In this document: positions 3,318 to 22,528 of the stretch, in pieces
Position numbering within the stretch: the stretch's first letter is position 1
How the letters are laid out: each line of letters opens with the position of its first letter
IMG/VR virus record: IMGVR_UViG_3300028886_000036
Coordinates: 1-64,000 of that record
From: a virus
Lineage: Duplodnaviria; Caudoviricetes
Length of the DNA stretch: 64,000 nt
Strand: one strand, 5' to 3'
Program-made: the position numbers and the translations under genes
The notes under the pieces: model-generated
Seen by the model: only the letters and a program-made list of their open reading frames with translations
Told to the model about the DNA's origin: nothing
Databases searched by the model: none

Positions 3318-5885
3318 TTAACCCCTGAGGTTAATGAGCTTCTTTGCATTCTCCTGTTCCGAGAGTCTTTTGAGAACTGCATAAGGATTGTAGGAAGTTC
3401 TATCAATCATTGTAATCTTAGCAGCCTCTGAAACCTGGATCTGATCATTGCTCTTCCAAGGACTCTTCTTGCCCATCTTCTCATTATAGAAGTCAAGGAC
3501 ATTACGAATCTTCTTTAAAGCAGACTCGGAGAATCTAAGGATAAATGAAGGTGAAGCAAATAACTGAGTAGCCTCATTAATAGCCTCAGGAATGATTTGA
3601 GCTTTGCCCTCAACCATAGAAGCAATTGGGAACTTATAATCTGAAGGATCAGCGCCCTCATTAAGCCAGTAAAGGTGAGTAAGCTTAAGAAGATTGGTGT
3701 TAACCTTTGACTCCGACTTATAAGCAGTCTCAACTAAAAGCTTACCAGCATTAACGCCATCCCAGGTAGCATTCTCAGCAATGGGAAGAGCCTTTGTAGG
3801 AACAGAAACCTCAGAAACCACCTGAGAATCTCTAATCTCCTTAGAAACTGTAGTTGAACCAGTACCAAAAGCGTTATTAAGAGTCTTAAGAACAGAATTC
3901 ATCTCGGACTTATTAAAGTTACCAAGAATTGAATTCTCAAGAGTCTTACCTTCCTTAAAGTTAAGCTCATCAGCACCATTCTGAGCGGTTTTAGTAGCAT
4001 TAGTATTAACTGTATTTGGCTTCTTGCCAACATAATCAGCAATACCACTTAACTCAGGATAAGCTATAGCACTTTCCTTAACCATCTTAAATTTCTTACC
4101 CTTCTTAGCAGGCTTTTTAGCTAAGGCTTTCTTAACTGCCTTCTTAACATTCTTCTTCTTATTACCTTTCTTTTTAGCAGCTTCCTGGATTACAGTCATA
4201 ACCTTATAATAGTTATCGGTAAGAGACATTTCTTCATCCTCATCATCAATAGCCTTTCCATTACTTGAGACAACATTAACATCATCGTCATCAGTAATGT
4301 CTTCAGCTTCATCAGGAGAACCTAATGTACTTTCACCATCTTCAACAGCGCCATTACCGACATCAGTTAATGCTCCATCATCTTCAAGCGAGTCACTAAT
4401 ATCACCAATAATATCATCAGAGTCGTCATCTAAAGGTTTAGCCATAAGTTTGCCACCATCTTTATGCGAATCCTCGTCATCTTCTCTCATAATATTACGA
4501 AGTCTTTTGCTCATCCAGCGAAGCTCTTCAGCCTCTTCTGGCTGAATTGTACCTTTTTCAATGGGGATGTCAGCGTCTTCAACTTCTCCCTCATTACCAT
4601 TAAGATCGTCTTCTTCGGCCTCTGAGTCATCAATTTCACACTCGCAATCAACTGGTCTATCCCCAGTCTTACAAGAAGGATCTGAGGTAAGAGGACTATC
4701 AGATCTTTCATCTTCAGCAAGAATATTATTTAAAGCTCTCATAACGGCAGATTCTGAAACATCTAAATCATCATCATCTTCGCTGTCATCATCGTCATCC
4801 ATATCTTCGTCTTCGACATCCTCATCATCAAGATCATCATCCAGATCATCGTCATCATCCGAAACATCATCTATATCAGCATCATCATCCTCGACTAAGC
4901 CAGGATATTTTGCATTGTAACTCGCCCCAGTAAAGCCTGAACCTTCAGACATATCGTCCATGTCTGCATCATCTAAATCCTCATCAGAATCCATTTCAAC
5001 ATCTTCACCCGAATCAACATCTGGGACATATGTTGAGTCACCAACAGTAACTTCAACATCATTTGGATCTATATCTTCTGGAAGATCTACGGAAATAGCG
5101 CCAGAAACATCGCCATCATCTTCCATATCATCTAAATCAGTCTCTGGTTCACTGCTAACAACCTCAGTATCGTCTAAACCTTCATCACCTTCGAACAAAA
5201 AGCCCTCTGCTAAATCATCATCTTCAGGAAGCTCTTCGTCATCGTCTTCTAATTCAACGTCTCCTTCTAACTCATCATCGTCTTCAAGCTCATCAGACAT
5301 ATCGTCTTCATCTTCTGGAAGTTCGTCATCAAGATCTTCATCACCTTCGAAGAAAACCGATCCTTCAGCTAAATCGTCATCTTCGACATCCTCCTCATCG
5401 TCATCTTCAGGAAGATCTTCATCAGAATCTAAATCCGAATCAACATCCTCGTCATCCACATCATCAACATCGTCATCAAGATCCTCATCATCTTCCGCGA
5501 AACCGCATTCATCTAAATCAGGATCTTCGTCATCACCTTCATCTCCAAAACCAGTTTCGCCATCATCCTCAAAATCTTCATCATCGTCTTCCATATCATC
5601 AACTGCATCCGAATCGTCATCTAATTCGACATTATCACCTTCCGGAAGATCCTCATCATCTTCCTTAAGAATGCTATCGACATACTTTAATGTAGCCTCA
5701 ATAGCAGCAACTGATCCGCCAACCTTTTCAGGATCAGTTTCATCAACATCTTCCCAAGCAGTTAATGATGGATTAGTCTTTCCACCAGTCATACCAAGAA
5801 GATCGCTACCAACTTCAGTATTTAAATCAATGCCATTTGAAGCTGGAACCTTATGTGTCTTAGTTATAATTTTCTTTCTAGCCAT
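3318..5885 (-). CDS. Extremely acidic head scaffold/core-like protein
   Basis: 855 aa with a ~480-aa D/E-rich tract and a Lys-rich patch; many hydrophobic-x-E motifs (LAEG, FFEG, VSES, MRED, IQEA, VKES, LNEG); close to the portal; GAGG SD. Confidence 0.6.
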   Translation of the reverse strand: MARKKIITKTHKVPASNGIDLNTEVGSDLLGMTGGKTNPSLTAWEDVDETDPEKVGGSVAAIEATLKYVDSILKEDDEDLPEGDNVELDDDSDAVDDMEDDDEDFEDDGETGFGDEGDDEDPDLDECGFAEDDEDLDDDVDDVDDEDVDSDLDSDEDLPEDDDEEDVEDDDLAEGSVFFEGDEDLDDELPEDEDDMSDELEDDDELEGDVELEDDDEELPEDDDLAEGFLFEGDEGLDDTEVVSSEPETDLDDMEDDGDVSGAISVDLPEDIDPNDVEVTVGDSTYVPDVDSGEDVEMDSDEDLDDADMDDMSEGSGFTGASYNAKYPGLVEDDDADIDDVSDDDDDLDDDLDDEDVEDEDMDDDDDSEDDDDLDVSESAVMRALNNILAEDERSDSPLTSDPSCKTGDRPVDCECEIDDSEAEEDDLNGNEGEVEDADIPIEKGTIQPEEAEELRWMSKRLRNIMREDDEDSHKDGGKLMAKPLDDDSDDIIGDISDSLEDDGALTDVGNGAVEDGESTLGSPDEAEDITDDDDVNVVSSNGKAIDDEDEEMSLTDNYYKVMTVIQEAAKKKGNKKKNVKKAVKKALAKKPAKKGKKFKMVKESAIAYPELSGIADYVGKKPNTVNTNATKTAQNGADELNFKEGKTLENSILGNFNKSEMNSVLKTLNNAFGTGSTTVSKEIRDSQVVSEVSVPTKALPIAENATWDGVNAGKLLVETAYKSESKVNTNLLKLTHLYWLNEGADPSDYKFPIASMVEGKAQIIPEAINEATQLFASPSFILRFSESALKKIRNVLDFYNEKMGKKSPWKSNDQIQVSEAAKITMIDRTSYNPYAVLKRLSEQENAKKLINLRG

Positions 5886-6023: not shown

Positions 6024-7013
6024 ATGTTTGCTTCAATATTTGTTAAGAAAAAAATCTGTAAGGATGTGAGGTTTTTTACAACAAATGCCGTGAATATTTT
6101 AGATAATGCTAAAGTAAAAAAGCTGGCAGTTCTTATCGAACAGATTTGTAAAACAGAAGGAAGATACATTGATAAAATCGCTGTATCTCCTGATCAGGCA
6201 ATTAAATCAATACTTAACCAGTATTCAGAGTTTAGGCCAAGTGTAGAAGCTTGCTTAAAAGACAGAAAGAACTATGTAAATGAGATAATAAGATTTAGTC
6301 AAAATAATGAAGCTATAAAAGATAACGTATCTTTAGCTTGGTTTAAGAAATTCTTAAAATACATATTAGAATGTGTTAAACATGGATTACATTTAGCTAA
6401 ATCTTTCTTGAACAAAATCTTGGGAATTAATTTAACTGAAGCTTCTAGTAAAGATTTTCTAAAAAACTATAAGCCAGCAGTTACTGTTGGATCAGCTATA
6501 TTATGTGGTACAGGACTTTGTTTAGGAATAGTTTCAGCTGTAGTTCTTTTAGGTATAAGCCTTTGGCTATTTGCTACAGGTAAGATAATTAAAAAATTGA
6601 GCTCTAAGCCAAGTATACTTGAAAAACTCAAGCAAAAAGGTACTAAATGGTTTGGTAGAGAGGAAGATGATCTGCCTGATGATCTTGCTCCTCCAGATTT
6701 AGATGTACCAAATGTTACTATGAGTTTTAATGTTAATACTTCAGAATCTTTATTACAATATGCACAAGACAAAGCAAAGTATAAATTGCTACAAGTATGT
6801 ATTAAATGTCTTTGTATTTTTTGTTTAAAATCAGTATTAGCATTATATATGTCTTCTGATTTGGCTTGGGGTGTTACTATGCTTATAGCAGTTTTTACAC
6901 CCGGTATGAATCTAATAACTTATGTATTAATTTGGATATTTATCGGATGTTGTTCGGCTTATAAACTTTTGACATATGATAGTATTAAGATTAATGAACC
7001 TGAAATGGTGTAA
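6024..7013 (+). CDS. Multi-pass membrane protein, putative virion-packaged
   Basis: 329 aa, two hydrophobic clusters. Confidence 0.6.
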   Translation: MFASIFVKKKICKDVRFFTTNAVNILDNAKVKKLAVLIEQICKTEGRYIDKIAVSPDQAIKSILNQYSEFRPSVEACLKDRKNYVNEIIRFSQNNEAIKDNVSLAWFKKFLKYILECVKHGLHLAKSFLNKILGINLTEASSKDFLKNYKPAVTVGSAILCGTGLCLGIVSAVVLLGISLWLFATGKIIKKLSSKPSILEKLKQKGTKWFGREEDDLPDDLAPPDLDVPNVTMSFNVNTSESLLQYAQDKAKYKLLQVCIKCLCIFCLKSVLALYMSSDLAWGVTMLIAVFTPGMNLITYVLIWIFIGCCSAYKLLTYDSIKINEPEMV

Positions 7014-7021
7014 GACAAGAA

Positions 7022-7699
7022 ATGACAGCTCAACCAAAAGAGTTCTTAAATGAACCATCGCTTGAAATTAGTTATAAGAGGCTTCAACCTTTTTTAAATA
7101 ATAAGAGTTTTAAGTATAGTTTAAACTTTCTTAATAACAATTATAATCTCTCTGAAGGATCTAAAATATCTTTAAAAGCTTTTAAGAAAATCTTTTTAGA
7201 TATGATATCAAAGTTTAAAGATGATGTAAGAGAAGATTTTGATGATAAGTATAAACAAAAAGGCTGGAGCAAGTTTTTTAATAAACTTAAAAAATTCTTT
7301 CACAAAGTGTGGAATAGAGCTTTCAGTATAGTATGTAGTGTTACTGCTAGTGCTGTAGTATTTACATTAGGGTTTGTATGCTTACAATCTCTAATGGCAG
7401 CAATAATAGCTTGTAGTATTTATACAATGATTACTTTTAGTATTAAATACTTTGCTTCTATCAACAGTAATACTAATATGTTCTATGAACCTGGGTATGT
7501 TGGGATACCTAAGCTAAGCTCTATAATAGACTTTTTTAAGTTTATGTATAAGTTTATTAAAGATACTATAGTAAAAGTATTTAATTGGTTCTTCTATGAG
7601 ATAGAAGATGATAATAAGAAAGATATTCTTGTAAGAAGACGTAGAATCTTTTTATTAGGAGTTATTAGTGTACTAGTTATATGTATGATGGTGATTTAA
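7022..7699 (+). CDS. Membrane protein
   Basis: 225 aa, about 3 hydrophobic segments, LNEP/LSEG/VRED motifs. Confidence 0.6.
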   Translation: MTAQPKEFLNEPSLEISYKRLQPFLNNKSFKYSLNFLNNNYNLSEGSKISLKAFKKIFLDMISKFKDDVREDFDDKYKQKGWSKFFNKLKKFFHKVWNRAFSIVCSVTASAVVFTLGFVCLQSLMAAIIACSIYTMITFSIKYFASINSNTNMFYEPGYVGIPKLSSIIDFFKFMYKFIKDTIVKVFNWFFYEIEDDNKKDILVRRRRIFLLGVISVLVICMMVI

Positions 7700-7946
7700 A
7701 ATAATCACATATACTATGATCTTAATAAATAAACTAGTTATTAAGTTTAGTTAACAATTATAAAAATAGAACTGACACAGATTTAAGTCATAGTTCTAGC
7801 ATTGCTAAAAAGATGAATATTATTAAAATAGTTTAAGTAATGCCAGAGTCAACTTAAATGGGTTGTCTAGTGCTATAGATACAAATCATAATATAATGAC
7901 AGGAATAAACAATGTTCCTGCATCAAATTTAGGAGGAATAAATAAT

Positions 7947-8891
7947 ATGGCTAAGCCTTTTTATAATTTAGGTAATGCATTTACTGCTGGTGGTCCTATT
8001 TCTGCTGGTGGTGCTCTTGTTAACAACGCTGCTGATTCATTTGCTTTCGGTATGGATACTGGAGCTGGTGATGTTGATTGGGCCGGTTTCGGTGCTAAAC
8101 TTAAGACCGGTTTTGGGAAGTTCGTTGATGCTTCCAAAACTACACCTTATGTTAAGAAAGCTATGGAAATGCAGAAGATGAACACTGTATTAACTAATGC
8201 TGGCATTACAAATGGAAATATAAAGACCCTTGTCGGTACATTACAGAATCCGATTAAGAACATTAAATCCTTAGGTAAGGGTATGAACGCAGCTATGAAG
8301 GGTGTAAAGGCTGGTACAGCCGAGGTTAGTCAGGGTATTATGGCGGCTAAAAGAGCATTAGGAATTCCTGAGAAAACTTTCATGCAGAAAACCGCTGACT
8401 TCTTTACAAAAATGTGGAATAGGATTTATGAGGTTATTTTTAAGCCAATTTCAGAGTTCTTTGGTAGTATTTGGGATAAAATCGTTGGTGTTTTTAAACT
8501 TATTGGTGAGAAATTATATCAGTGGATAGGAAAGCCATTTATGGATTATATTTACAATCCAATTAAAGGTGCTTTAGGTTCTAAAGTTGGTGGTAGCGAT
8601 GTTACGTGGGGTAATGTTTTATTAGTTGGGTTGTTAGTTCTTGCTGCAGCTGCAGTTATGTACTATATTGTTAAGTGGGTTTATGCCAAGTATAAAAATT
8701 GGAGGGCTAAGAGCTCCGGTCGTGTTCGTGAATCGTATATCAATACTCTTAATCGCCAGTCATTTATCGAGGCTAAGAATGTTGCTAGCTTCCTTAAGGA
8801 AAATACTTCTATGAGTAAGAAGGAGTGCAATAAGGTTGCTAACTATGTTTATAAGAGCAGCCTTACTAGAAAGATTAATAATCTTATCTAA
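7947..8891 (+). CDS. Probably abundant Gly/Ala-rich amphipathic membrane protein
   Basis: Start at ATG 7947 after AGGAGG; codon usage rich in GCT/GGT/AAG; TM segment VLLVGLLVLAAAAVMYY; C-terminal VRES/FIEA/LKEN motifs; own terminator. Confidence 0.7.
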   Translation: MAKPFYNLGNAFTAGGPISAGGALVNNAADSFAFGMDTGAGDVDWAGFGAKLKTGFGKFVDASKTTPYVKKAMEMQKMNTVLTNAGITNGNIKTLVGTLQNPIKNIKSLGKGMNAAMKGVKAGTAEVSQGIMAAKRALGIPEKTFMQKTADFFTKMWNRIYEVIFKPISEFFGSIWDKIVGVFKLIGEKLYQWIGKPFMDYIYNPIKGALGSKVGGSDVTWGNVLLVGLLVLAAAAVMYYIVKWVYAKYKNWRAKSSGRVRESYINTLNRQSFIEAKNVASFLKENTSMSKKECNKVANYVYKSSLTRKINNLI

Positions 8892-8916
8892 TTTAAGCTA
8901 TTAAACTACTAATTAT

Positions 8917-8951
8917 ATGCCTAGGTCTTATATAGGCCTAGGCATTTTTTT
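8917..8951 (+). terminator. Intrinsic terminator
   Basis: ATGCCTAGG..CCTAGGCAT followed by TTTTTT. Confidence 0.85.
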
Positions 8952-8977
8952 AATATAAAGAAGGTGAGATAAGATTA

Positions 8978-10366
8978 ATGAGTGATAAAAATGTTAATGG
9001 TTATACTAACGTAGGTCAAGGTACAAATTTATTTAATAATACAGATGTTAATGATTATACAAATACAACTTCTAAATCTGGGCAAAGTTTCAAACCTGGA
9101 GAAGCTCTTGGGGATACACTTACAGGATCAACTGAAGGCAATTTTGGCAAAACCGCAGTTAAACCAGGAGGAGTTGACCAAACTGTAAGCTCTGATAGAA
9201 CTGGAAATACTCGTGATGCTAATATAAAACTTGATGCTGTAAATAACTCTGCATTTATACAGCCAAATCCCAAAGTTCCACCGGCTCCGGAAAGACCAGA
9301 ACCTCCGGTTAAACCTGCAGAAGCTCCAGCAGCCCCTATAACTCCAACTCAAACAACCGCTGGTACATCGTCTCCGATTAAACCTGCTCAACCTACAATG
9401 ACACCGACTACTGATAATATAATCAAATTAATCCCATCTAAGAAACAGATTAGTGAGATGTCTAGAGAAGAACTTATAAATCTTAGAAGCTTTCTTATTA
9501 AGCATTGTTATAAGGAAGCTATGCAAACATATGATATTTATAATGTAAAAAGATTTGCTAAGGAATGTTTCAAGACACATAATATGATTCCAGTAGTTTT
9601 GAATCAATATTATCCAGATGTTATTACCGATAATATCCAAAAAGTATATACTAAATTATTAGAGCTATCTAATGTAGAGGGTAATGGAGAAAATATTAAG
9701 AATGCAGTTCAAACACAATTAGATTATACAATGAAATTATTTTCTACTTCAACGGATTGGATTGGCATAGTATTAAGCAAGAAATTGGGAGAGTGGTCTC
9801 CTTTCTTTAAGAATACTACTATGGAAAATATGACTATTGGAAAATTCTTTATGGCAGCTGCATTGTGTGCATCTATTGTGTATCTCGTTAAAAAATTCTT
9901 TAAGTCAAAGTATTTTTTAGGTATTGGAGATAAGTATGATTTCTCTGATAGTACTAATAGAGCATACTTTGATTCTAGAATGAAGAATTTTAAAGAAGAT
10001 GTTGATGCTAAGCTTAAAGAGTATATGAGCAAAGATATACCTACTGATGTTTTAATGATAAACTCCATTATACTTAAAGCAGAGGCTATGTCATTAGGAT
10101 TATTGTTATCAGTTGCATACCAAAACTTAGATGAGTATAACATTCCATTAAATATCTTAGTTCTTACAGAAGTTTGTTGTTCAATGGTATTGTTATGGGA
10201 TAAATTATTAGGTAGAAAACTTAAAAAGTCAAAATCTACAAGCAATCTCTATGATGTTATTTCAGATAAGCTATCTATCTCTATGGGCGTTAATCCTAAT
10301 AATCCTAGTAGAGATATTTTTAGTAAATTAAATAAATATTCTAGAAGTCTTTCAAATGAAAAATAG
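8978..10366 (+). CDS. Hypothetical protein with Pro/Thr-rich linker and TM segments
   Basis: 462 aa, AAGGTGA SD. Confidence 0.7.
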   Translation: MSDKNVNGYTNVGQGTNLFNNTDVNDYTNTTSKSGQSFKPGEALGDTLTGSTEGNFGKTAVKPGGVDQTVSSDRTGNTRDANIKLDAVNNSAFIQPNPKVPPAPERPEPPVKPAEAPAAPITPTQTTAGTSSPIKPAQPTMTPTTDNIIKLIPSKKQISEMSREELINLRSFLIKHCYKEAMQTYDIYNVKRFAKECFKTHNMIPVVLNQYYPDVITDNIQKVYTKLLELSNVEGNGENIKNAVQTQLDYTMKLFSTSTDWIGIVLSKKLGEWSPFFKNTTMENMTIGKFFMAAALCASIVYLVKKFFKSKYFLGIGDKYDFSDSTNRAYFDSRMKNFKEDVDAKLKEYMSKDIPTDVLMINSIILKAEAMSLGLLLSVAYQNLDEYNIPLNILVLTEVCCSMVLLWDKLLGRKLKKSKSTSNLYDVISDKLSISMGVNPNNPSRDIFSKLNKYSRSLSNEK

Positions 10367-12995
10367 ATATAATAAGACTTATGTTAAGTATTTACTTAAA
10401 GAATCTAATCATAGAGAATTAACTAATAAAGAAAAAAAGTATTTAAAAGAAGTTGGTCTTGGAGGATTAGTTACATCAGCTTGGCCTTTGTGGGCTGGCG
10501 TAGCTGGATTAACCGCTAAACACTGGGTTCCTAATGTAGCAGATGCTCTTATAACACATGGCCCAGCTATGGCTAGTGGAGCAAAAACGTTAGGAAAGGG
10601 TATGTGGTGGTTAACTAAAAATGGTGTAAAAGGAAGTTTAGCTGCTGCAAAGATAGGATATGATTATGGTAAGCTCGGAGTTGATTCAATCAAGGATACC
10701 ATTAAAGACTCTAATAAGGTAGTTAGAGTTAAAAGTAAAGATGGAAAGAGGGTTAAACTAATTAGAAAAGGTGAAAGAAGAGGACCGTTTGGCGGCGTAA
10801 GATCTTCCTTTGAAAGAGACTACAGGGATTTTAAAAGAGGAGGAGGTTTACACGGTAAAAAAGTGAAAGAATGTATCAACTTATTATGCCAATTAAATGG
10901 TAAAAGTTTTAATGAGAATGTTAAAGTATTCTCTAAAATGTATTCCTCGTTTCTCAATAAATATAAGCAGTATATACAAGAATCAATTGTTAATGATATA
11001 GTTCCTATAGATCTGTTTAAGGAATGCTTATTACAAAAACTTGAAGAATCATATACTATACTTGATGAAAAACAAGAAAAGTTCTTATATGATATGCTTA
11101 CTAAGAACAAGTATGCCGAAGAGAATAGATTGTTTATAAAGAACTATTATAATAATGGTATGAGGTTTATGCTTAATGAAGGTATAGATCCTATTAACTT
11201 TAGAGCAGTAGTGCTATTAAATGAGATCAGCAAGTTTAAAAAAGCTGGGGTATATGGAAGAAGAGTTAAAAGATTCTTCACTGGTAAAAAGGGAAGATCG
11301 TATATAAATTACAGCAAACTTAATCCATCTAAGGCTAAGGATAGTAATAAATATACATTTGCTGGTAAAGAGTATAGTAAGCCTACTGAACCAGATTTAC
11401 AAAAAGCTAGAGCTTGGCGAAAAATTAAATCAGCTGCTACTCAGGGAGAAAAAGACAGTTTATTACAAAAATTTATGCGTGATTATAAGATAAATAATGA
11501 AAAGGAACTTGATAAGAAAATGGACGATTTAGATTCAAAGATTTCAACTACTAAAGATGTTGGAAAATTTAAGTGGAAATCGTTATTTCCTGTTAATAGA
11601 AAAAAACTTGAAAAAAACGCTCGTATAAGACAACTTAGAAAAGATAAAGGGAAAATGGAAGAGCTTAGAAGAAGATATATGATGGGTGATACAACACTTA
11701 CTGATGATGAGTTAGCTGCATTGCCTAAAGTATTTGGTAGAGGATCAAAATTAGGTAATTATTTATCTAGAAGAAGTAACTTAAGAGCCGATGATATACT
11801 TGCACAACAAACTACAGACTTGAGCAGAATGGCTCAATTAAATCAAGCTAGATCTACTGCAACTCCTTCAAATGGAGCTACTGGAATATCTCCTTGGATG
11901 AACCCAAACGCGTATGGTGGGGCTTTAGTAAGACAGTTTGGAACACCTGATCAACAACAAAGATATTTACCAACCGGTTCTGATAATAATAGACCTCGTA
12001 ATGGACGCAATGCCACCGCAACTGGAGCAACTGCATCTACAACTGGAACAGCTACACCTACAACTGGTACAAATACATCAACTCAACAATCAGCTACTCT
12101 TGATGTAAGTAGATTAAATCCAACTGAAGCACCTAAACCAGAAGCTGTAAATAATGATGTTTCAGCATTAGTAAAATTATACAAATTACAATTACTAAGT
12201 AGGCAAAAAAAATCTCATAGTGATAAATTTATAATGCTTAAACCAGAAGATCTAGCTAAAGGTATATTTAGTTTAGCTAAAAATAGGCCAGAGTATGAAC
12301 GTTTAAAAGACAGAATTTTAACTGGTAGTTTTGGAAAAAAGGGAACAGCAAATGACTTGTATGGTATGTTCAAGCAATTAAATATAAAGATTACTCCAGC
12401 TTATAGTTATAATGGTACATATTATTCTGATCCATCACAAATACCAGGTGGAGTAGATAGTTCAACAGATGCTAGGGGTAAAACTATTTATACGTCTAAA
12501 GCTAATGGGGAGAAAATAAACGTTAGTAGTGGATCTTTTATATATATGACTAAGATTAAAAAGGCTTTAACGAATCTTGAATCTGTTTCATCAGCATCTC
12601 AGTCATCTTCTACGCCAGTACAACAGTCAGCTCCTAAATCACCTACTCAACCAGCTTCTAAGTCGTCTGATTCATCAGGATCTTCACAAGCCTCTTCATC
12701 AAATACTTCATCAACTTCTAAATCGACCGATTCATCTGGATCTTCACAGGAACTTTCAGATACTACTCCGTCAAAAAATAACAAGGATAGAAAAAGAAGG
12801 AAAAAAAGGCCTAGAGACAATCCATATAATGAAAATAGAAAAGATACTGAAGAATCATATAATTACTTTATTTACAAATACTCTCCAGAAGTTCAATTAG
12901 CAGAATCTAGAGGTATATCTCCTAGAAACTTCTATCAATTGTACTTAATTGAAAGAGTTAAAGAAATGTATGGTATAAAGAATGAAAAGGTATAG
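10356..12995 (+). CDS. Large basic/low-complexity protein, putative internal head protein
   Basis: 879 aa; clusters of LKES/IQES/LNEG/LAES motifs; N-terminal hydrophobic Gly-rich segment; Thr- and Ser-rich linkers. Confidence 0.65.
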   Translation: MKNRYNKTYVKYLLKESNHRELTNKEKKYLKEVGLGGLVTSAWPLWAGVAGLTAKHWVPNVADALITHGPAMASGAKTLGKGMWWLTKNGVKGSLAAAKIGYDYGKLGVDSIKDTIKDSNKVVRVKSKDGKRVKLIRKGERRGPFGGVRSSFERDYRDFKRGGGLHGKKVKECINLLCQLNGKSFNENVKVFSKMYSSFLNKYKQYIQESIVNDIVPIDLFKECLLQKLEESYTILDEKQEKFLYDMLTKNKYAEENRLFIKNYYNNGMRFMLNEGIDPINFRAVVLLNEISKFKKAGVYGRRVKRFFTGKKGRSYINYSKLNPSKAKDSNKYTFAGKEYSKPTEPDLQKARAWRKIKSAATQGEKDSLLQKFMRDYKINNEKELDKKMDDLDSKISTTKDVGKFKWKSLFPVNRKKLEKNARIRQLRKDKGKMEELRRRYMMGDTTLTDDELAALPKVFGRGSKLGNYLSRRSNLRADDILAQQTTDLSRMAQLNQARSTATPSNGATGISPWMNPNAYGGALVRQFGTPDQQQRYLPTGSDNNRPRNGRNATATGATASTTGTATPTTGTNTSTQQSATLDVSRLNPTEAPKPEAVNNDVSALVKLYKLQLLSRQKKSHSDKFIMLKPEDLAKGIFSLAKNRPEYERLKDRILTGSFGKKGTANDLYGMFKQLNIKITPAYSYNGTYYSDPSQIPGGVDSSTDARGKTIYTSKANGEKINVSSGSFIYMTKIKKALTNLESVSSASQSSSTPVQQSAPKSPTQPASKSSDSSGSSQASSSNTSSTSKSTDSSGSSQELSDTTPSKNNKDRKRRKKRPRDNPYNENRKDTEESYNYFIYKYSPEVQLAESRGISPRNFYQLYLIERVKEMYGIKNEKV

Positions 12996-13555
12996 ACTTG
13001 TTGAAGTAGACACTTCATTAAATAGCATTGATAAACTTATAGAGACAGCCAAAGATGCGTTAAAAACTAAAGAAGGATATGAATGCAAAAAAAATAGCTA
13101 AATATAGTTTAAAAAATCCTAAAAAAGGTTTAAAACTAGCTATAAAGAAGGCATATCCTGAGGATAAAGATAGGCAAATGGATATGATAGAAAGTGTTAT
13201 GTATGCATTTGATGTTTTAAAAGATGAGTATAACTTAAATAGTATTGCAGCACTTTTTGTCTGTATAAAGTTTCTTTTAGCTATTGCATATGGTAAAATA
13301 CTATTGTATCCCAAACAAACAAAAAGGATTGTAGATCATTGGTGTAAAGTTGAAATAGATAGTTTTAGAGGAAATCATTCAAATTTTGGGGTTATTGTGG
13401 TAAATACTTTACTCATTAGTGTAATATTACATTTACCCTTTAGCGTATATAATCTTATAGTTGGAAAACATTATATTTGGTTGTTTGCTTTTCTAGCTGG
13501 GGTTTTATATAGAAGATTAACATATTCTTCAACAGTAAAATCATTATTAAAATAA
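12982..13555 (+). CDS. Membrane protein, apparently split by a frameshift in an A8 tract
   Basis: 39-aa ORF 12982-13101 (MKRYRLVE...) joins the 13079-13555 frame if one A is removed from A8 at 13087-13094. Confidence 0.55.
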
Positions 13556-13585
13556 TTAAAATAAGAAAGGAAGTATGTTTTAAAC

Positions 13586-14404
13586 ATGCAGGTTAAAGAT
13601 TTACCTACTATGAAGAAGTTTACATTTCCAGTATATGAGGTAGTTACTCCAGTTACTGGTAGGCATTTTTTAGTTAGAGCTATGACAGTAGCTCAAGAGT
13701 CACTTATTAGGGAAAGTAGTACTTCTGATTCAAAGAGATTACAGTTATTGTATCAGGTGTTATTTGATTGTATTGAGAATAAGGAACCGCCATTCACATC
13801 TATTGAAGGATTTCTTAAAAACTTAACAATTAATGATCTTGATGCACTTTTGTTTGGAGTTATTGTTTCTACATATGGAGAAACTCAGGACTATACAGTT
13901 AAGTGTCCTAGATGTGAAAATGAGATTAAGGGTAAGTTTGTTCTTCCAGAAATTATTGATATTACTGCGTATGATGGTAATGAGGATTTACTTCTTAAGG
14001 AAGTTGAAATTGAACTTCCTATTTCAAAGTATAAAGCAATACTTAAAGTGCCTACATTATATGATGAAAGAATGCTTAATATGAATAAGGGCATATCTAA
14101 AGATATTATTTCTAAAATGGGAGAGTATCTTATTGTTAAGAAACTTATTATTCCTGGAGTTGAAACTACCAAAACTGGTGAAACCATTGAAAAGGAATAT
14201 ATAGTTGATAAAGCTATTGAGATTTATACAACTTTTACTAATCTTCCAGCAGCTGACGCTAAGTTTGTTAGGAAGCAGTGGGATGAGCTTTTTGGTAAGT
14301 ATAGAATTAAGTTAGAAGTGCCTATGCATTGTTCTAATTGTGATAATGAGTTTAAGAATCCTATAAATCTTCTTCTGGAGTTCTTTCGCCTCGCCTGGCA
14401 GTAG
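13586..14404 (+). CDS. T4 gp26-like baseplate hub / tail assembly chaperone
   Basis: PVYEVVTP..VRAMTVAQE, LTINDLDALLF..STYG, CPRC and CSNC zinc motifs, C-terminal EFFR. Confidence 0.75.
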   Translation: MQVKDLPTMKKFTFPVYEVVTPVTGRHFLVRAMTVAQESLIRESSTSDSKRLQLLYQVLFDCIENKEPPFTSIEGFLKNLTINDLDALLFGVIVSTYGETQDYTVKCPRCENEIKGKFVLPEIIDITAYDGNEDLLLKEVEIELPISKYKAILKVPTLYDERMLNMNKGISKDIISKMGEYLIVKKLIIPGVETTKTGETIEKEYIVDKAIEIYTTFTNLPAADAKFVRKQWDELFGKYRIKLEVPMHCSNCDNEFKNPINLLLEFFRLAWQ

Positions 14405-14624
14405 AGAACAAGAACAAGCTAAAGAAGCTAGTTTAAATAGAAAAGCAACTTTTATGGAGTTATTCAAAGCAGATTATACTGTATTTGAATATATCCCAGT
14501 GAATGTTTTAAATGAGCTATTGGAATGGAAGTTTAAGTTAGAAGAGGAAAAGAAAAAGCAAATGGAAGAAAGCTTACATAGTAGTAAGATAGATACAGCT
14601 CAAAGAAAATATGTTAAAAAGTAA
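14385..14624 (+). CDS. +1-frame extension of the tail chaperone (gpGT/gp51-like C-terminal part)
   Basis: 79 open codons in the +1 frame from TTT_CGC; FMELFKADYTVFEYIPVNVLNELLEWKFKLEEEKKKQ; no SD for the internal ATG; terminator directly after. Confidence 0.6.
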   Translation, partial: FASPGSREQEQAKEASLNRKATFMELFKADYTVFEYIPVNVLNELLEWKFKLEEEKKKQMEESLHSSKIDTAQRKYVKK

Positions 14625-14628
14625 TGTA

Positions 14629-14670
14629 TCTGATAGAGGAAATGTAATAGTTTCTTCTATCAGATTTTTT
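14629..14670 (+). terminator. Intrinsic terminator
   Basis: TCTGATAGAGGAAA..TTTCTTCTATCAGA followed by TTTTTT. Confidence 0.8.
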
Positions 14671-14751
14671 AGAAATAAGGGAATATTGAAGATTATTTAA
14701 TGTTTCAATATGTTATTAAAGGAAAGTATACTTATTATGAGGTGTTTTAAA

Positions 14752-15636
14752 ATGTACATTTTAAGTGAATCTGAAAAGAAACAAACTTTTAAAATAGTTG
14801 AAGCTGTAAAAAGTATTATTAACTCTACAGATACTAAATCAGTTTATAAAAAATGCTTACTTAAAAAGAAGCAATTTGATAAGAGAGTTTCTAAAGCAAA
14901 AACTGCTCTTCAAAGTATGAATATAGATGTAAATCATCATATTAAAAAGGTTAAAGAAATGTGTGATGATTTTTCTATAATGGGTATAATTAAAACTGTT
15001 GGAATCTATTGGGAGAACGCTAAAAAGACAGAACTTAATCCAGAGATCAATCATAAGGCGTTTTTATTGTTTTTAATATGTGTAATCCCTGGTCTTTTTG
15101 GTGAATGGATATTATCGTTTGGATTAGGGAAAGAAACTTCAGATATTATAGGATCAGTTTTATTTGCTCCTCTATTTGAAGAGTTAGCAAAATATTTATC
15201 AGTAAAACAAGGAGTTCATCAAGAATTTTGGAAGTTATTTAATATGGTAGAGTTTTTTGCATATGTTGTAAAGCCATTTATATTTTTCATTGCATTTCCT
15301 TCTGTTACTACTACAGCTATTTTTGGCGTTAGCTTAATTGTTAGATTCATCTGTGTTATGATGCATACTATTAATACAATGATACATAAAAAAGAATTAG
15401 ATAACGGAAATACTAAGAGAGGTTTAGTTATTGGTATTCTTATACATATGTTTTGGAATGGGGTTTTATCAAATATTGTTGATGGAAAAAGTTTTTCTAG
15501 CTTAAAAGATTTTATAGTTGGTGAATTTGTATGGGCTGGATCTGCTCTTAGCTTTTTACTTTTAGTAGGAGCTATATATAAGAAAATAATTAATAAAGAA
15601 GATGAAGTCGGTGGAGTTGAACCAGCATATGCATAA
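14752..15636 (+). CDS. PrsW-like (CPBP superfamily) intramembrane protease
   Basis: APLFEELAK, FNMVEF, VMMH and IHMFWN motifs in TM helices; ATG 14752 after GAGGTG. Confidence 0.7.
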   Translation: MYILSESEKKQTFKIVEAVKSIINSTDTKSVYKKCLLKKKQFDKRVSKAKTALQSMNIDVNHHIKKVKEMCDDFSIMGIIKTVGIYWENAKKTELNPEINHKAFLLFLICVIPGLFGEWILSFGLGKETSDIIGSVLFAPLFEELAKYLSVKQGVHQEFWKLFNMVEFFAYVVKPFIFFIAFPSVTTTAIFGVSLIVRFICVMMHTINTMIHKKELDNGNTKRGLVIGILIHMFWNGVLSNIVDGKSFSSLKDFIVGEFVWAGSALSFLLLVGAIYKKIINKEDEVGGVEPAYA

Positions 15637-16282
15637 TGAAAACTATTTATTAGAGAGTAGTTTTTATATAAGTCTTCTTACCAATAGAACATTAAAGGAA
15701 AGTTATAGCAGTATATATAACAAATATCTTACAGAAGGTATACATCCTAGACTTGCTACAAAATTACTTTATGAAGAGGTTAAAAAGAATCAAGCTATTA
15801 TAGATAAACTTTACAGAAAACTTAAGTGGCGCTTACAAAATATGAAGTCTAAGAATGACCCAAAGCTTACTAAGATGGTTAAAGATATTGTGGATAAATC
15901 AGATGAATCTAGATTTGAAAAAGATTTAGTTAAACTTCTTCAATATATGATTACTATAGATGCTTTGAAGGAAAGTAAATACCAAGATACTTTAGATAAA
16001 GTTTTAGATGTCTATGATGGCTGTATTAATAAAGGTAAAACACACGAAGAATCTGCTTTAAGGGCTTTAATATCAATACCATTCGTTTTAAAGGGAACAC
16101 CTAGTGATACTAGTATTAAAGTGTTTAAAGTTTTAGGGCTTATAACAATATTAGTCTTACTTTGTGGTCTTATTAATGGAATATTGTTTGGAGGGTATAT
16201 GTTTATATTTCCTCTTATAGTTGCTATATTATCTCTAATAATTAGTGGAGGAAGATATTATTTAATAGTATCTTTTTATTAA
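15629..16282 (+). CDS. Membrane-anchored protein with multiple x-x-E motifs
   Basis: LLES/LKES/LTEG/LYEE in the N-terminus, two C-terminal TM helices. Confidence 0.6.
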   Translation: MHNENYLLESSFYISLLTNRTLKESYSSIYNKYLTEGIHPRLATKLLYEEVKKNQAIIDKLYRKLKWRLQNMKSKNDPKLTKMVKDIVDKSDESRFEKDLVKLLQYMITIDALKESKYQDTLDKVLDVYDGCINKGKTHEESALRALISIPFVLKGTPSDTSIKVFKVLGLITILVLLCGLINGILFGGYMFIFPLIVAILSLIISGGRYYLIVSFY

Positions 16283-17014
16283 ATGAAAACATATAAGCTA
16301 AAATTAAAAGAATGGTCCTGGTTGAATCCATTCAAATCTTCTTCTGAATTTGATTCGGGCGGACTGAATAGATTCCAATTCAGAAAGCAGTTCTTAGATC
16401 TATTAAGAAAATCAATTGCTCTTAGAATTAATCCTAAACCATACACTTCAACAAAAGAATTATATCAAGACTATTTAGAAACTTATAAAAAGATTACTTA
16501 TGATGAAGCTAAGGTACTTGCTCAAAGCATTAAAGATAATGATATCTTTTTATTAAAAGAACTAAGAAATCAAGAATGGTTTGAATTTATTATGCATATT
16601 GTAGTAAACTATGGTACAGGATATGCATTCAATTGTAGGTCATATGGGGCAGATTGGGGTGACGATGTTTTTGGTTATGGAGTAACTCCGAATAGAAAAG
16701 TTACTAGATTTTTAAATCAAGTAGAAAAAGTATATAACTCTGACCCAATGACTGTGAGTAATTATTTAGATCATAAATATGATTGGGTTGAATTAGTATT
16801 AGAGTATGTTCAAGTAATGAATCGCGATATTGTGGTGGTTCAATATTTCCCAGATGGAGACGGGGTTCATTATGCTTATGTAAGTAAACCTTATGCCCAA
16901 AAATATATTAATACTATCTTAGATTATGATGTAAATCATAACTTCAAACTAGATGTATTTAAACCAGAAAGACCTAGATTAAAGTTTTTTGTTCAGCGTG
17001 GTGTTAAGCTTTAG
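16283..17014 (+). CDS. Hypothetical protein with capsid-targeting-like leader MKTYKLKLKE
   Basis: 243 aa, abuts the upstream stop. Confidence 0.65.
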   Translation: MKTYKLKLKEWSWLNPFKSSSEFDSGGLNRFQFRKQFLDLLRKSIALRINPKPYTSTKELYQDYLETYKKITYDEAKVLAQSIKDNDIFLLKELRNQEWFEFIMHIVVNYGTGYAFNCRSYGADWGDDVFGYGVTPNRKVTRFLNQVEKVYNSDPMTVSNYLDHKYDWVELVLEYVQVMNRDIVVVQYFPDGDGVHYAYVSKPYAQKYINTILDYDVNHNFKLDVFKPERPRLKFFVQRGVKL

Positions 17015-17034
17015 CAATAAATGAGGTGATATTT

Positions 17035-17223
17035 TTGAAAGTAAAATTTATAAAGAAAGAACTTATGGAACAAAAGTTACTTAATGAATTATATGAAGAT
17101 AGTCTTGGTGAAGATACTTTTAAAACTCCTAAGGAAGCTATTAGATGGTGTAATCAAATGTTTGAAAAAACTAAAGATAGAAAGTATAAACAAATTAGTA
17201 ACTATCTTCATATCTATTTGTAA
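17035..17223 (+). CDS. Small hypothetical protein (TTG start, MKVKFIKKE...)
   Basis: GAGGTGA SD 5 nt before TTG 17035. Confidence 0.6.
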   Translation: MKVKFIKKELMEQKLLNELYEDSLGEDTFKTPKEAIRWCNQMFEKTKDRKYKQISNYLHIYL

Positions 17224-17238
17224 GGTGAGATGATATAA

Positions 17239-17619
17239 ATGGATGATATAAATTTTTTACATGATGGTATAGAAATAGTCATAAATGAATGCCCAAAGGG
17301 GTTTAAAAGAAAATATGTTAAAGTTATCTCAGCAGCAATAGTCATTAGTAAAAACATTTTTCATGACGTTGGGGCTGGAGTAAAAAATATATTTGGAGGA
17401 GAATTAAAGTCTTATTCAAATCTAGCAGAAGAAACATTTGAACAATGCTTAGAAAGATTAAGAAATAAGGCTAAAGCGGCTGGATATGATGGTGTATGCA
17501 ATATAAGAGCTTTTTCTCCATCAATAGCAGTTCAAGCATCTGAATTAGTTTTATATGGAATAGGATTTGTATACGTTCCAATGCATCCTAAAGCGCCAGA
17601 TAAAAAGCCTAAAATATAG
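17239..17619 (+). CDS. ybjQ: YbjQ/UPF0145 family protein
   Basis: NIFHDVGAGVKNIFGGELKSYS..RLR.KA...G.DGV.NIR..ELVLYG signature. Confidence 0.85.
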   Translation: MDDINFLHDGIEIVINECPKGFKRKYVKVISAAIVISKNIFHDVGAGVKNIFGGELKSYSNLAEETFEQCLERLRNKAKAAGYDGVCNIRAFSPSIAVQASELVLYGIGFVYVPMHPKAPDKKPKI

Positions 17620-17636
17620 AAGAAGGGGCGATTATT

Positions 17637-18830
17637 GTGGAAGAGGAATATATTGTTGAAAATGGTAAAGTATTAGAGGGCATGCTCAATAATTTCTTCA
17701 CTGAAGCTAAAATGAATAAAGGTAGTGGAAGTAGAGTTGCATTAAGGAATATGGTAATGCAATGTGTGAATGATTTAAAGTCCAATCCACAAGCTGCACA
17801 AAGATGTAATGCATCTATAGAAGGTAGAAGAAGAAACTTAGCTATTGGTGCTTTGAATAATGAAAAAGCAGCATCTCAAATATTGGGTGAGTATATTAAG
17901 AAATATGTTGAATCAGAATGCGTATCTGAAGGAGTTAGATTGGGCAAAGGTGGAAGAAAGAATCTTCAAAAGGAAATTAACAATGCTGTAGCTAAGTTAT
18001 TTAGAAATACTAATCTTAGAATAGACATGGTTAGAAAAGCTCAACAAGCTACTGGGACTGCTCCCACTAACTCAAAAGAAGATTATACTCCGGAAGAAAG
18101 ATCTAAGTACCTTAAAGAAGGTTATATTGAATGCGATAATATTTTTTATAAAGATGGATTGTATCTATCAGAAGGAGATTACCAAAGTAATGCAAAGAAA
18201 ACTGCTAAAGGAACTATATTAACTATACTAGTATTTATTATTAGCTTATTGCTAACTAATATGGTTAGAGCTTACTTTGGTGGAACTCCTGGAGGGGAAT
18301 TTGCTTCAGAAGCTATGAAGAATGGATTCACTTGGTTTACTTGTTTAATATTAGCTCCTATTATAGAAGAACCTGCTAAATTGATAAGTGTTAAGGGAGG
18401 ATATGGTAAGCATTTCTTTTTTGCATTTAACTTTTTAGAGTTTGGGTTATATGTTATGATGCTAGTATCTGGTGGAATGAGTGTAGGTGTAGCTATTCTT
18501 ATAAGAACTGTAGCAGTTATGATGCATGCTTTAACAATGAGAGTATTGGGTAGTACAAAGGGTAAAGGTATAGCTATGACTAGTTTTAAATTAGCTGTAA
18601 GTATTCTTATACACTTTATATTCAATGCTTTATTTTTAAAATATATGGTATTTGGTATAGCTGGTAATACAATATTATTATTTATAATAGGCTTCTTTGG
18701 AGTAGCATTTGGTCTTTTCTTGGTGTCTAAGATATTTAGTAGTAAGACTAAAAATGATAATGATTATAATGATTTTACTACTCAAAGCAACCTAGATTAT
18801 GGAATGAGAGGTGGGTATGGTTATGCCTAA
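17637..18830 (+). CDS. PrsW-like intramembrane protease with long soluble N-terminus
   Basis: APIIEEPAK, FNFLEF, VMMH and IHFIFN; paralogue of 14752-15636; N-terminal FTEA/VSEG/LKEG/LSEG motifs. Confidence 0.7.
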   Translation: MEEEYIVENGKVLEGMLNNFFTEAKMNKGSGSRVALRNMVMQCVNDLKSNPQAAQRCNASIEGRRRNLAIGALNNEKAASQILGEYIKKYVESECVSEGVRLGKGGRKNLQKEINNAVAKLFRNTNLRIDMVRKAQQATGTAPTNSKEDYTPEERSKYLKEGYIECDNIFYKDGLYLSEGDYQSNAKKTAKGTILTILVFIISLLLTNMVRAYFGGTPGGEFASEAMKNGFTWFTCLILAPIIEEPAKLISVKGGYGKHFFFAFNFLEFGLYVMMLVSGGMSVGVAILIRTVAVMMHALTMRVLGSTKGKGIAMTSFKLAVSILIHFIFNALFLKYMVFGIAGNTILLFIIGFFGVAFGLFLVSKIFSSKTKNDNDYNDFTTQSNLDYGMRGGYGYA

Positions 18831-19230
18831 AAAAACTTTGTTTGGGTGCCTTCCACAAAAAGGTGTAGATGGTGATTTTAAAATCTATACAGATTTAGAA
18901 GTAATAATGCAATCTATATATGTAATACTTAATACTCCAAAGGGGTCTAGGATTTGGCAACCTGAATTTGGATGTAATGTAATGTCATATATCTGGGATC
19001 TTTTAGATGAAAAAACTGTTGATACTATGAGAACTGAAATAGAGAATGCCTTAGCTAGATGGGAACCTAGGATTAATGTAAATAATGTAGATGTTTCTAT
19101 AAGTCCTTATACACAGGGAACTGTTAATGTAACTATAGAGTTTAGTTATGCTGGTAAAGATTATAGTAAGAATATGTCTTTATCGCAGACTAATATGAGC
19201 GATATATCGGTATATTCAATGCATTATTAA
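18823..19230 (+). CDS. Baseplate wedge protein, gp25/GPW family
   Basis: IMQSIYVILNTPKGSRIWQPEFGC..IENALARWEPRI. Confidence 0.9.
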   Translation: MPKKTLFGCLPQKGVDGDFKIYTDLEVIMQSIYVILNTPKGSRIWQPEFGCNVMSYIWDLLDEKTVDTMRTEIENALARWEPRINVNNVDVSISPYTQGTVNVTIEFSYAGKDYSKNMSLSQTNMSDISVYSMHY

Positions 19231-20886: not shown

Positions 20887-20914
20887 TTTGATATAAAAGA
20901 AAGAGGTGATCCTC

Positions 20915-21907: not shown

Positions 21908-22528
21908 ATGAGATATAGATTAATACTTAAAGAAGATGTTAATCAACATTTATATTTTTATCATTTAGGTCCAAAGAATCTTGATAAGATAGTTTCATTA
22001 GAGTATCAGTATAGAACTAATAAACAACTATTCCTAATAAACAGTAGTAAATATAGATTTAGATTATGTAATGGATGGAATGTTTATCCAGGTAGAAATC
22101 CTGAAAGTTTAACTTTAGAAGAAGTACATGATGGTATATGTAAGTTTAGAAAATCAGTTAATGGATGTAATCAGATCTATCTCTTTAGATATCCACCATT
22201 TAAGGGTCTAGGATTAAGTATGTCTAAAACATTATCTGGTAAAGGAATCTATAGAATTGACTTATATAGAATCAAACTGTTACTTAACTATATTACTTGG
22301 GGTTGGGTATTGAGTAATACTGACAATAAGAAACTTAATAAAAGTTATTACGAAAGAGTTACTCCTATAGAATACTTTAGTAGATATGATGATAATGCTT
22401 CTATGAGATTTGCTGCTATGAGCCATATAAGTGTTTCACCAAAAGAGTACTATATACCAAAGGAATATTTTAATCAAATACCGATACCTAATACTATAGA
22501 GGATGTTGTTAGATATGAGGGGATATAA
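21908..22528 (+). CDS. ADP-ribosyltransferase-like protein with MRYRLILKE leader
   Basis: FYHL..., IYLF, IYRIDL and YIPK pattern resembling ART-fold strands. Confidence 0.45.
   Translation: MRYRLILKEDVNQHLYFYHLGPKNLDKIVSLEYQYRTNKQLFLINSSKYRFRLCNGWNVYPGRNPESLTLEEVHDGICKFRKSVNGCNQIYLFRYPPFKGLGLSMSKTLSGKGIYRIDLYRIKLLLNYITWGWVLSNTDNKKLNKSYYERVTPIEYFSRYDDNASMRFAAMSHISVSPKEYYIPKEYFNQIPIPNTIEDVVRYEGI

Follow-up and report, generated by a model that had tools for sequence, protein, structure and literature searches.

Here, we describe a block of genes at positions 6024-18830 of a 64,000-nucleotide stretch (the window) that forms the first 64 kb of IMG/VR phage record IMGVR_UViG_3300028886_000036, a 275,466-bp genome of an uncultured phage that is rated complete and has a G+C content of ~32%. 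The block is rich in predicted membrane proteins, includes two PrsW-like intramembrane proteases (PrsW-1 and PrsW-2), and carries on several of its proteins a short N-terminal leader that resembles the capsid-targeting sequence (CTS) of the internal proteins of phage T4. A sequence-only reading of the window had taken the block for an operon of membrane proteins that are matured in the phage head and delivered into the host membrane. We report the follow-up of that reading, and propose that the block's membrane proteins are probably targeted to the prohead.

The gene block

Fifteen co-oriented open reading frames (ORFs) lie on the plus strand in 6024-19230, 14 of them within 6024-18830 and 11 of these at least 100 aa long, and a gp26-like hub gene, a gp25 gene and head genes are found in or near the block, much as the sequence-only reading had placed it. 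Its count of at least eight genes with transmembrane (TM) helices also stands: by Kyte-Doolittle hydropathy (19-residue window, threshold >=1.6), strong TM helices are predicted in eight of the 11 block ORFs of at least 100 aa (starts at 6024, 7022, 7863, 8978, 13079, 14710/14752, 15602 and 17637), compared with 27 of 249 elsewhere in the 275-kb genome, where most are single weak segments. Its single operon of membrane proteins had to be given up, because strong hairpin terminators interrupt the block at 8917-8945 and 14628-14665, and five soluble ORFs (the hub gene, a 56-aa ORF, a 243-aa ORF, a 65-aa ORF and a YbjQ-family gene) lie inside it. A sigma-70 promoter scan gave no excess over shuffled sequences. 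Every TM protein is basic; ORF5 has a net charge of +71, and a core-like neighbour has one of -198. The block and its immediate neighbours are as follows, with nucleotide (nt) positions of the window and with a slash after the Glu of a leader or site.

3318-5885, minus strand: 855-aa hyper-acidic, scaffold- or core-like protein; net charge -198, 8 [LI]xE[SAG] motifs against 2.4 expected
6024-7013, plus strand: ORF1, 329 aa, three TM segments; LTEA at nt 6432-6443, just before TM1
7022-7699, plus strand: ORF2, 225 aa, three TM segments; LSEG at nt 7148-7159
7863-8891, plus strand: ORF3, 342 aa; N-terminal part Gly/Ala-rich, one strong TM segment, VRES after it; terminator 8917-8945 downstream
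8978-10366, plus strand: ORF4, 462 aa, three TM segments; orthologs in related contigs L005, L007, L009, L010 and L012 at 25-41% identity
10356-12995, plus strand: ORF5, 879 aa, no strong TM segment; net charge +71, 17-residue N-terminal leader ending YLLKE/S (nt 10356-10406)
13079-13555, plus strand: ORF6, 158 aa, two TM segments; no homolog found
13586-14404, plus strand: T4 gp26-like baseplate hub, not a membrane protein (PF12322 E 2.7e-13, phrog_150)
14752-15636, plus strand: PrsW-1, 294 aa; leader MYILSE/S at nt 14752-14772, EELAK at 15178-15192, H205 at 15364-15366, HMFWN at 15445-15459
15629-16282, plus strand: ORF10, likely start 15629, overlapping the PrsW-1 stop; MHNENYLLE/S, then LKES, LTEG and LKES, and C-terminal TM segment(s)
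16283-17014, plus strand: ORF11, 243 aa, soluble; canonical 10-residue leader MKTYKLKLKE/W
17239-17619, plus strand: YbjQ-family protein between the PrsW paralogs (PF01906 E 2e-15)
17637-18830, plus strand: PrsW-2, 397 aa; six-TM PrsW-like core behind a helical cytoplasmic N-domain; N-terminal EYIVE/N, FTE/A at nt 17697-17708, LSE/G at 18165-18176 in a disordered linker that directly precedes TM1; EEPAK at 18366-18380, H297 at 18525-18527, HFIFN at 18612-18626
18811-19230, plus strand: gp25-like baseplate wedge protein or sheath initiator, at the end of the block (PF04965 E 1.4e-19)

No usable match to Pfam or PHROGs was obtained for any of ORF1-6, ORF10, ORF11 and the acidic 855-aa protein, and an Atlas search with ORF4, for which the Atlas model is poor, gave no usable match. 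ORF5 lies upstream of the gp26-like gene and has no tail-family match, and its orthologs range in length from 523 to 1206 aa. The hub protein falls outside the idea of delivered membrane cargo. Among 50,697 cultured-phage records, the whole block has no megablast match, tblastn with PrsW-1, PrsW-2 and a distant family member (P0066) found no match, and the sole match of the hub protein in cultured phages is a Streptococcus phage baseplate protein at 25% identity.

PrsW-like proteases

PrsW-1 and PrsW-2 are paralogs (E 1e-11). PrsW-1 starts at the ATG at 14752, which is preceded by a GAGGTG Shine-Dalgarno sequence, and its exact 294-aa product is present in the Atlas. The superfamily motif EExx(K/R) lies in a TM helix of both proteins, and both have the conserved TM histidine and HxxxN. 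Across 26 metagenomic homologs of PrsW-2 (alignment A1), E244, E245, K248, H297 and H326 are invariant and N330 is at least 90% conserved; PrsW-1 orthologs (alignment A3) have E143, E144, K147, H205, H232 and N236 invariant, and in the broader PrsW-1 family (alignment A5) E143 and E144 are invariant and K147 is at least 90% conserved. Neither protein reaches the gathering cut-off of Pfam PrsW (PF13367), with PrsW-1 at 19.0 bits against 23.5 (E 0.0011, its best match) and PrsW-2 without a match, and 6 of 23 family members match PF13367 at E < 0.1. Judged by their sequences, both are distant members of the PrsW superfamily, and not family members by Pfam's rule.

AlphaFold2 (AF2) models were obtained with pLDDT values of 84.7 (PrsW-1) and 67.9 (PrsW-2). 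A Foldseek search with the PrsW-1 model found APH-1 (8oqy_C; probability 0.99, TM-scores 0.50/0.62, E 0.77). Using VIA-align, the PrsW-1 model matched 6w6l_4, which we take to be TMEM147 (Z 9.2, rmsd 4.9, 183 residues aligned), and APH-1 8oqz_C (Z 8.7, rmsd 4.9, 182 aligned), and the best PDB match of the PrsW-2 model is APH-1 (Z 9.6, rmsd 3.5, 153 aligned), with SpdC at Z 7.0, all of these Z values being below the level that the tool calls safe for helical bundles, though top-ranked. Structural neighbours in the Atlas are PF13367 clusters for PrsW-1 (TM-scores 0.45/0.59) and, as top match, an Rce1-like protein for PrsW-2, while a PrsW-2 family profile searched against the PDB gave only insignificant coiled-coil or apolipoprotein-like matches to the N-domain (E >= 0.03). 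APH-1 and CPBP proteins are distant kin of PrsW (PMC3482391). On their conserved residues, and with fold matches that are top-ranked but below the safe level, we call the pair distant PrsW/CPBP/APH-1-type intramembrane proteases with intact catalytic motifs and predicted activity. Judged from the charges of its loops, PrsW-2 would have an N-in topology.

Like PrsW of Bacillus subtilis (PF13367; CPBP/Rce1/APH-1), the two proteins combine EExxK, a TM histidine and HxxxN in a multi-pass core, and their best structural neighbours are APH-1, TMEM147 and predicted PrsW clusters. Unlike the B. subtilis protein, they fall below the Pfam cut-off, have an extra helical cytoplasmic N-domain of 100-190 residues with a leader, are viral, form a paralogous pair, and have no evident RsiW-like partner.

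N-terminal leader and prohead protease

A leader of 9-10 residues, M(K/R)xY(K/R)L(I/K)LKE with D, S or W as the next residue, opens five long ORFs of the genome (16283, 21908, 23097, 86980 and 133301) and at least 10 ORFs in related contigs; it always stands at the ORF start, and the reversed-genome control gave 0 matches. The carriers are unrelated to one another and include GNAT acetyltransferases, a calcineurin-like phosphoesterase (Metallophos), a Peptidase_S51 and one 446-aa protein with a strong TM helix. Because the DNA upstream of leader-bearing ORFs is not conserved, the similarity resides in the leader peptide itself. A loose N-terminal motif was rejected as a signal, with 28 proteins genome-wide having it in residues 1-30 and 27 in the control window 31-60, so only the specific leader is informative.

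Within the block, ORF11 has the canonical form, which its L012 ortholog retains (MKYKLKLKEW) at 25% overall identity, ORF10 probably begins MHNENYLLE/S, and ORF5 has ..KYLLKE/S at residue 17. PrsW-1 begins MYILSES here and MRYRLIES, MRYKLIES or ..KYRLELKES in its orthologs, with L4, E6 and S7 of the leader invariant at 26-29% overall identity. In PrsW-2 orthologs the EYIxEN start, a hydrophobic-x-E-A near residue 23 and the L-x-E-G before TM1 are all conserved. Orthologs of ORF1 and ORF2 (29-44% identity) likewise retain L/I-x-E-[GA]: the pre-TM1 site of ORF1 is LSEG in L009 (44% identity), and the ORF2 site is IFEG in L007 and missing from L009.

A candidate enzyme for cutting such sites is encoded in the same genome. 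Head genes lie upstream of the block on the opposite strand and at the far genome end, the latter including those for the capsid protein and the head protease; these two and two further leader-bearing genes are listed here.

21908-22528, plus strand: gene outside the block, starting MRYRLILKED
23097-24011, plus strand: gene outside the block, starting MRYRLILKED
genome 269061-270665, minus strand: gp23-like capsid protein (major-head-protein PHROGs; homologs carry Pfam Gp23)
genome 270994-271947, minus strand, neighbouring the capsid gene: Peptidase_S77 / head maturation protease, 317 aa, by family match

By these family matches, the head of the phage is T4-like. Near the N-terminus of the gp23-like protein, L16-x-E18 is invariant across 19 homologs, down to 30% identity, which in alignment is the L/I-x-E specificity of T4 type. 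This invariant site and the S77 protease together make the leader point to the prohead protease.

In T4, N-terminal propeptides of 10-19 residues direct internal proteins to the prohead core; processing is decided by residues 8 and 10 of the CTS, the CTS is sufficient to load proteins, and the proteins behind it are otherwise highly diverse (PMC9026906; PMC3012670). By analogy, the leader described here fits each of these published properties, being a short N-terminal propeptide common to otherwise unrelated proteins, with L or I at P3, Glu at P1 (L-K-E or L-I-E) and a protease in the same phage. As with T4 IPI-III and Alt, ~10 residues with a hydrophobic P3 and Glu at P1 open unrelated, fast-evolving proteins, and as in T4, a gp21-type (S77) protease and a gp23-type capsid protein are present and an acidic core-like protein lies beside basic candidate cargo. 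The leader sequence differs from that of T4. The eight block proteins are predicted to be integral membrane proteins, two of them proteases with 5-6 TM segments, unlike any known internal protein tagged with a T4-type CTS, the cargo of T4 being soluble; to our knowledge, the T4 capsid-targeting system is known for soluble proteins only.

The strings quoted in the sequence-only reading (LKES, LTEG, IQES, LNEG, LSEG, FTEA and VRES) are all present, and the abundance of hydrophobic-x-E motifs that it described is confirmed at a moderate level: [LIVFM]xE[GSADN] occurs 31 times in the block against 19.9 expected from shuffles (ratio 1.56; 1.04 in the rest of the genome). For [LI]xE[SAG] the counts are 17 and 6.7 (ratio 2.55; 1.13 elsewhere), with a density of 0.42 per 100 aa compared with 0.17, a level that 12-13 of 319 sliding 14-gene blocks match, most of the top-ranked ones overlapping this region. 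Ranked by enrichment, the top three proteins of the genome all lie in this region (the 226-aa ORF10; the acidic 855-aa protein, motif-rich as had been noted; and the 879-aa ORF5), and ORF10 has the highest [LI]xE[SAG] excess of all (4 observed, 0.44 expected). No single-protein enrichment passes multiple-test correction. The phiKZ-type motif [SAG]xE is not enriched in the block (32 observed, 39 expected).

Several side observations touch these genes. The genes at 21908 and 23097 have an identical leader, encoded by 30 nt with one mismatch, and neither has a Pfam or PHROG function match. The leader-bearing 446-aa protein (genome 86980-88320; L014:6981-8321) starts MKYKLKLKED and has a long soluble part and one strong TM helix; ORF3 is a weak paralog of it, and the juxtamembrane stretch of the 446-aa protein resembles ORF3. 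A few kb downstream of its gene, a 763-aa ORF begins at 91854, possibly a tail sheath gene, judged from its N-terminus alone. In the related contig L007 (12623-14034), the Peptidase_S77 call spans only 122 aa and is followed by a NUMOD4/HNH_3 homing-endonuclease gene, which may interrupt the protease gene.

Relatives and wider family

The gene order ORF1-ORF2-ORF3-ORF4-ORF5 and the two PrsW paralogs are kept in relatives, where the block has as neighbours the hub and gp25 genes (L005, L010 and L012), the S77 protease (L007) or head genes (L009, in which a 63%-identical homolog of the acidic 855-aa protein adjoins head genes). The proteins of gp25 and of gene 20906 (20906-21907) are 81-96% identical to those of relatives, and the best capsid homolog, probably from the contig of L010, is 96% identical. 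Identities fall to 48-66% for the hub, 41-60% for PrsW-2, 25-41% for ORF4, which is the most widely retained member of the first half of the block, and 23-27% for PrsW-1, and ORF1-3 and ORF6 are undetectable in relatives whose gp25 and 20906 proteins are 81-96% identical. By sequence comparison, the block thus diverges far faster than the flanking structural genes. The sharp mosaic boundary between 13586-18830 and gp25/20906 suggests that the membrane block either was replaced as a cassette or diverged very fast, and the hypervariability resembles that of T4 internal-protein loci, which by analogy would be an arms-race pattern.

A profile was built from five PrsW-1 orthologs and searched against 1.84 billion cluster representatives (E <= 0.001), yielding at least 502 representatives, uncultured and mostly 240-300 aa long. 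A hydrophobic-x-E motif lies in residues 1-25 of 98% of 130 full-length representatives, compared with 48-68% in later windows, and in alignments A4 and A5, at 19-27% mean identity, the N-terminal Glu is conserved almost without exception. In a second lineage (L018 and L019, two IMG/VR fragments), at least five neighbouring small ORFs and a PrsW-like protein have the leader MIS(L/I)SYLFE, and the PrsW-like gene lies among these leader-tagged small genes beside a UvsX-like gene, not among head genes. Two short contigs (L016 and L017) have a further set of similar leaders: MSKSICTYYE begins a PrsW-like protein, MKSIYLFLE a DUF2196 protein and MSKSIFDCWE an adjacent ORF. Because leaders are shared within each of these pairs of contigs, the tag on the PrsW-like protease co-varies with the other tagged genes of its lineage. 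No match to the S77 and gp23 families was found in the L018 and L019 records, which are 18-21% complete, so that this result is uninformative. Directly upstream of the leader-tagged PrsW-like gene in L016 lies a Peptidase_M48 (HtpX-like) membrane protease (758-1606) that starts MRNSILE; with this leader-like beginning it would add another type of membrane protease to the tagged ones. Literature searches on PrsW in phages, virion-borne intramembrane proteases and constituents of EPI vesicles found no description of such proteins.

Around the block, the small ORF at 14454-14624 after the hub gene is followed by a terminator with a 16-bp stem; this arrangement (window 14378-14665) is conserved, and in L005 and L010 the counterpart of the ORF overlaps the 3' end of the hub gene. 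The YbjQ gene is in the same position between PrsW paralogs in L012, but not in L005 or L010. A 752-aa virion protein (window 1-2256, minus strand) runs off the window start and continues at genome 273800-275466 (minus strand), its far end consisting of Gly/Met/Asp repeats (MGGDMGG...), and next to it is a 478-aa acidic low-complexity protein rich in Pro, Gln and Met.

Discussion

We consider it probable, at roughly 0.6, that the membrane proteins of the block are targeted to the prohead via a CTS-like leader, recognised by the head-maturation machinery and processed at L-x-E sites. We infer that the leader is a capsid-targeting signal and that the prohead protease cleaves the block proteins: a T4-like leader would address the membrane proteins to the assembling prohead, and the gp21-type prohead protease would trim them at L-x-E sites. 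Of the sequence-only reading's membrane proteins matured in the head and delivered to the host, it is the link to the prohead protease that is supported and extended (leader, capsid L-x-E and conserved L-x-E-[GA]), and not their packaging and ejection. The two PrsW-like proteases came through intact, as paralogs with conserved catalytic motifs, and the synteny that it had proposed to check is seen in relatives, with ORF1-5 in order beside both paralogs. The vesicle or channel formation and disabling of defence that the same reading had raised are pure conjecture.

Its analogy with phiKZ has weakened. Like phiKZ and SPN3US, this phage is a jumbo phage, and it has two genes for RNA polymerase beta-like proteins; in those phages, many head proteins are cut after Glu by a gp21-like protease (gp175/gp245), and the prohead leaves the membrane only after proteolysis. 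Unlike them, it has no enrichment of S/A/G-x-E, no match in Pfam scans to PF12699, the family of phiKZ internal head proteins, and no tubulin in a search of the genome, and its capsid and baseplate are T4-like.

That the block proteins travel in the head and are injected into the new host is the fate that we prefer, though we would put it somewhat short of an even chance. Once trimmed, the proteins, multi-pass ones included, would be packaged and ride in the head with the DNA. On infection they would pass out by way of the tail and settle in the inner membrane of the new host, where the PrsW-like enzymes would cut host or co-delivered membrane proteins (the substrates being presumed). Arguing for this fate are a tag common to enzymes that make sense only in a newly infected cell, evolution like that of T4 internal-protein loci, and the tagged small-gene cluster of L018 and L019, which is not among head genes. 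The ejection proteins of podophages (T7 gp14/15/16 and P22 gp7/16/20) and the T5 tape measure Pb2 are also carried in the virion and end in envelope membranes of the recipient, and the proposed cargo would parallel them in these respects; the comparison draws on general knowledge. They are structural channel formers with few or amphipathic hydrophobic segments, not enzymes with 5-6 TM segments, and have no CTS-type leader. More tentatively, the at least 502 clusters may form a widespread, undescribed class of virion-delivered PrsW-like proteases and membrane companions, loaded by leader and ejected through the tail into the inner membrane. Such enzymes would act before phage gene expression, by cleaving anti-sigma factors, defence sensors or effectors, or exclusion proteins, or by building an entry compartment.

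Several points weigh against delivery, and some against head targeting as well. The phage is uncultured. Proteins with 5-6 TM segments should insert co-translationally in the producing cell, and we know of no route from there into a closed prohead and of no tailed phage that packages a polytopic membrane enzyme. A cut at the L-x-E-G before TM1 (PrsW-2 and ORF1) would sever the soluble domain, which would better fit a tether in the producing cell, and in four genomes the block adjoins head-morphogenesis genes, the position expected of an assembly factor. ORF1-4 and ORF6 are without the canonical leader in this genome, and the motif enrichment, though real, is moderate and was in part defined post hoc.

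The alternative that survives best, which we find equally simple but somewhat less likely, is that the proteins stay in the inner membrane of the infected cell at the site of prohead assembly. Their cytoplasmic N-termini would dock to the prohead core via the leader, and the protease would cut the leader and the pre-TM1 L-x-E, freeing the prohead and perhaps soluble N-terminal fragments, with the PrsW-like enzymes acting locally, for example by clearing anchors. T4 and SPN3US proheads are built at the inner membrane and come away from it only once proteolysis has occurred (PMC9026906), and in the literature no named tether for giant-phage proheads was found. The alternative would account for the L-x-E-[GA] conserved ~5-12 residues from TM1 in PrsW-2 and ORF1, the linkage of the block, in the window, L007 and L009, to either head genes or the S77 protease, and the N-in topology suggested for PrsW-2 (a topology that delivery would need as well), and it does not need polytopic proteins to be moved into a capsid. 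A tether should co-evolve slowly with the particle, however, and the block is hypervariable in the very relatives whose structural proteins, the capsid protein and gp25 among them, are 81-96% identical; in L018 and L019 the PrsW-like gene keeps company with tagged small genes near a UvsX-like gene instead of head genes, and this alternative explains neither why there are eight different membrane proteins nor why catalytic residues are conserved.

It is improbable that these are ordinary late membrane proteins, serving in lysis control, superinfection exclusion or envelope remodelling, on which motifs and leaders would be unconnected with head maturation. Like them, holins, spanins and exclusion proteins are small, basic, TM-bearing and fast-evolving, and both the failure of single-protein enrichment at multiple-test correction and the five ORFs without a canonical leader would be as expected. 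The near-invariance of the N-terminal L-x-E across a family at 19-27% mean identity argues to the contrary, as do the co-variation of the leader with the other tagged genes of each lineage and the position of the whole region as the motif hot spot of the genome.

We give very little credence to the leader being a substrate tag for the PrsW-like proteases themselves, within a membrane leader-peptidase or export system. MroQ, which cuts the AgrD leader, is a parallel for leader processing of this kind, the basic, hydrophobic leader could lie on the membrane, and the protease genes are clustered with tagged genes. In polymorphic toxins, PrsW domains have been proposed to process and release attached toxin domains (PMC3482391). 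T4, however, uses gp21 for its CTS and has no PrsW, the invariant L-x-E of the capsid protein and the S77 protease already account for the P3/P1 pattern of the leader, the proteases bear the tag themselves, and a tagged GNAT would, on general knowledge, need cytoplasmic acetyl-CoA, which argues against export. Equally improbable is that the proteins are tail or baseplate-hub components, tape-measure-like or channel-forming, that sit in the tail tube and open the inner membrane for DNA entry, since the interleaved gp26-like hub and gp25 genes, the Gly/Ala-rich N-termini of ORF3 and ORF5, which resemble tape-measure segments, and the leader-bearing TM protein at 86980-88320 a few kb upstream of the possible tail sheath ORF (91854) are set against a block that travels in L007 and L009 with the protease or head genes and without hub or gp25, a capsid-type leader and an acidic core-like neighbour that point to the head, and no tail-family match for these ORFs.

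If the tag loads integral membrane proteases into the head, phages could place ready-made enzymes into the host membrane at entry, which would bear on early take-over, on anti-defence and on unexplained membrane events at the entry of jumbo phages. If instead the proteins act in the producing cell, they would be candidates for whatever keeps giant-phage proheads attached to the inner membrane before the protease acts. Either way, this is a large family with conserved catalytic residues and an N-terminal L-x-E, absent from the cultured-phage records searched, and it offers a concrete, testable set of genes.

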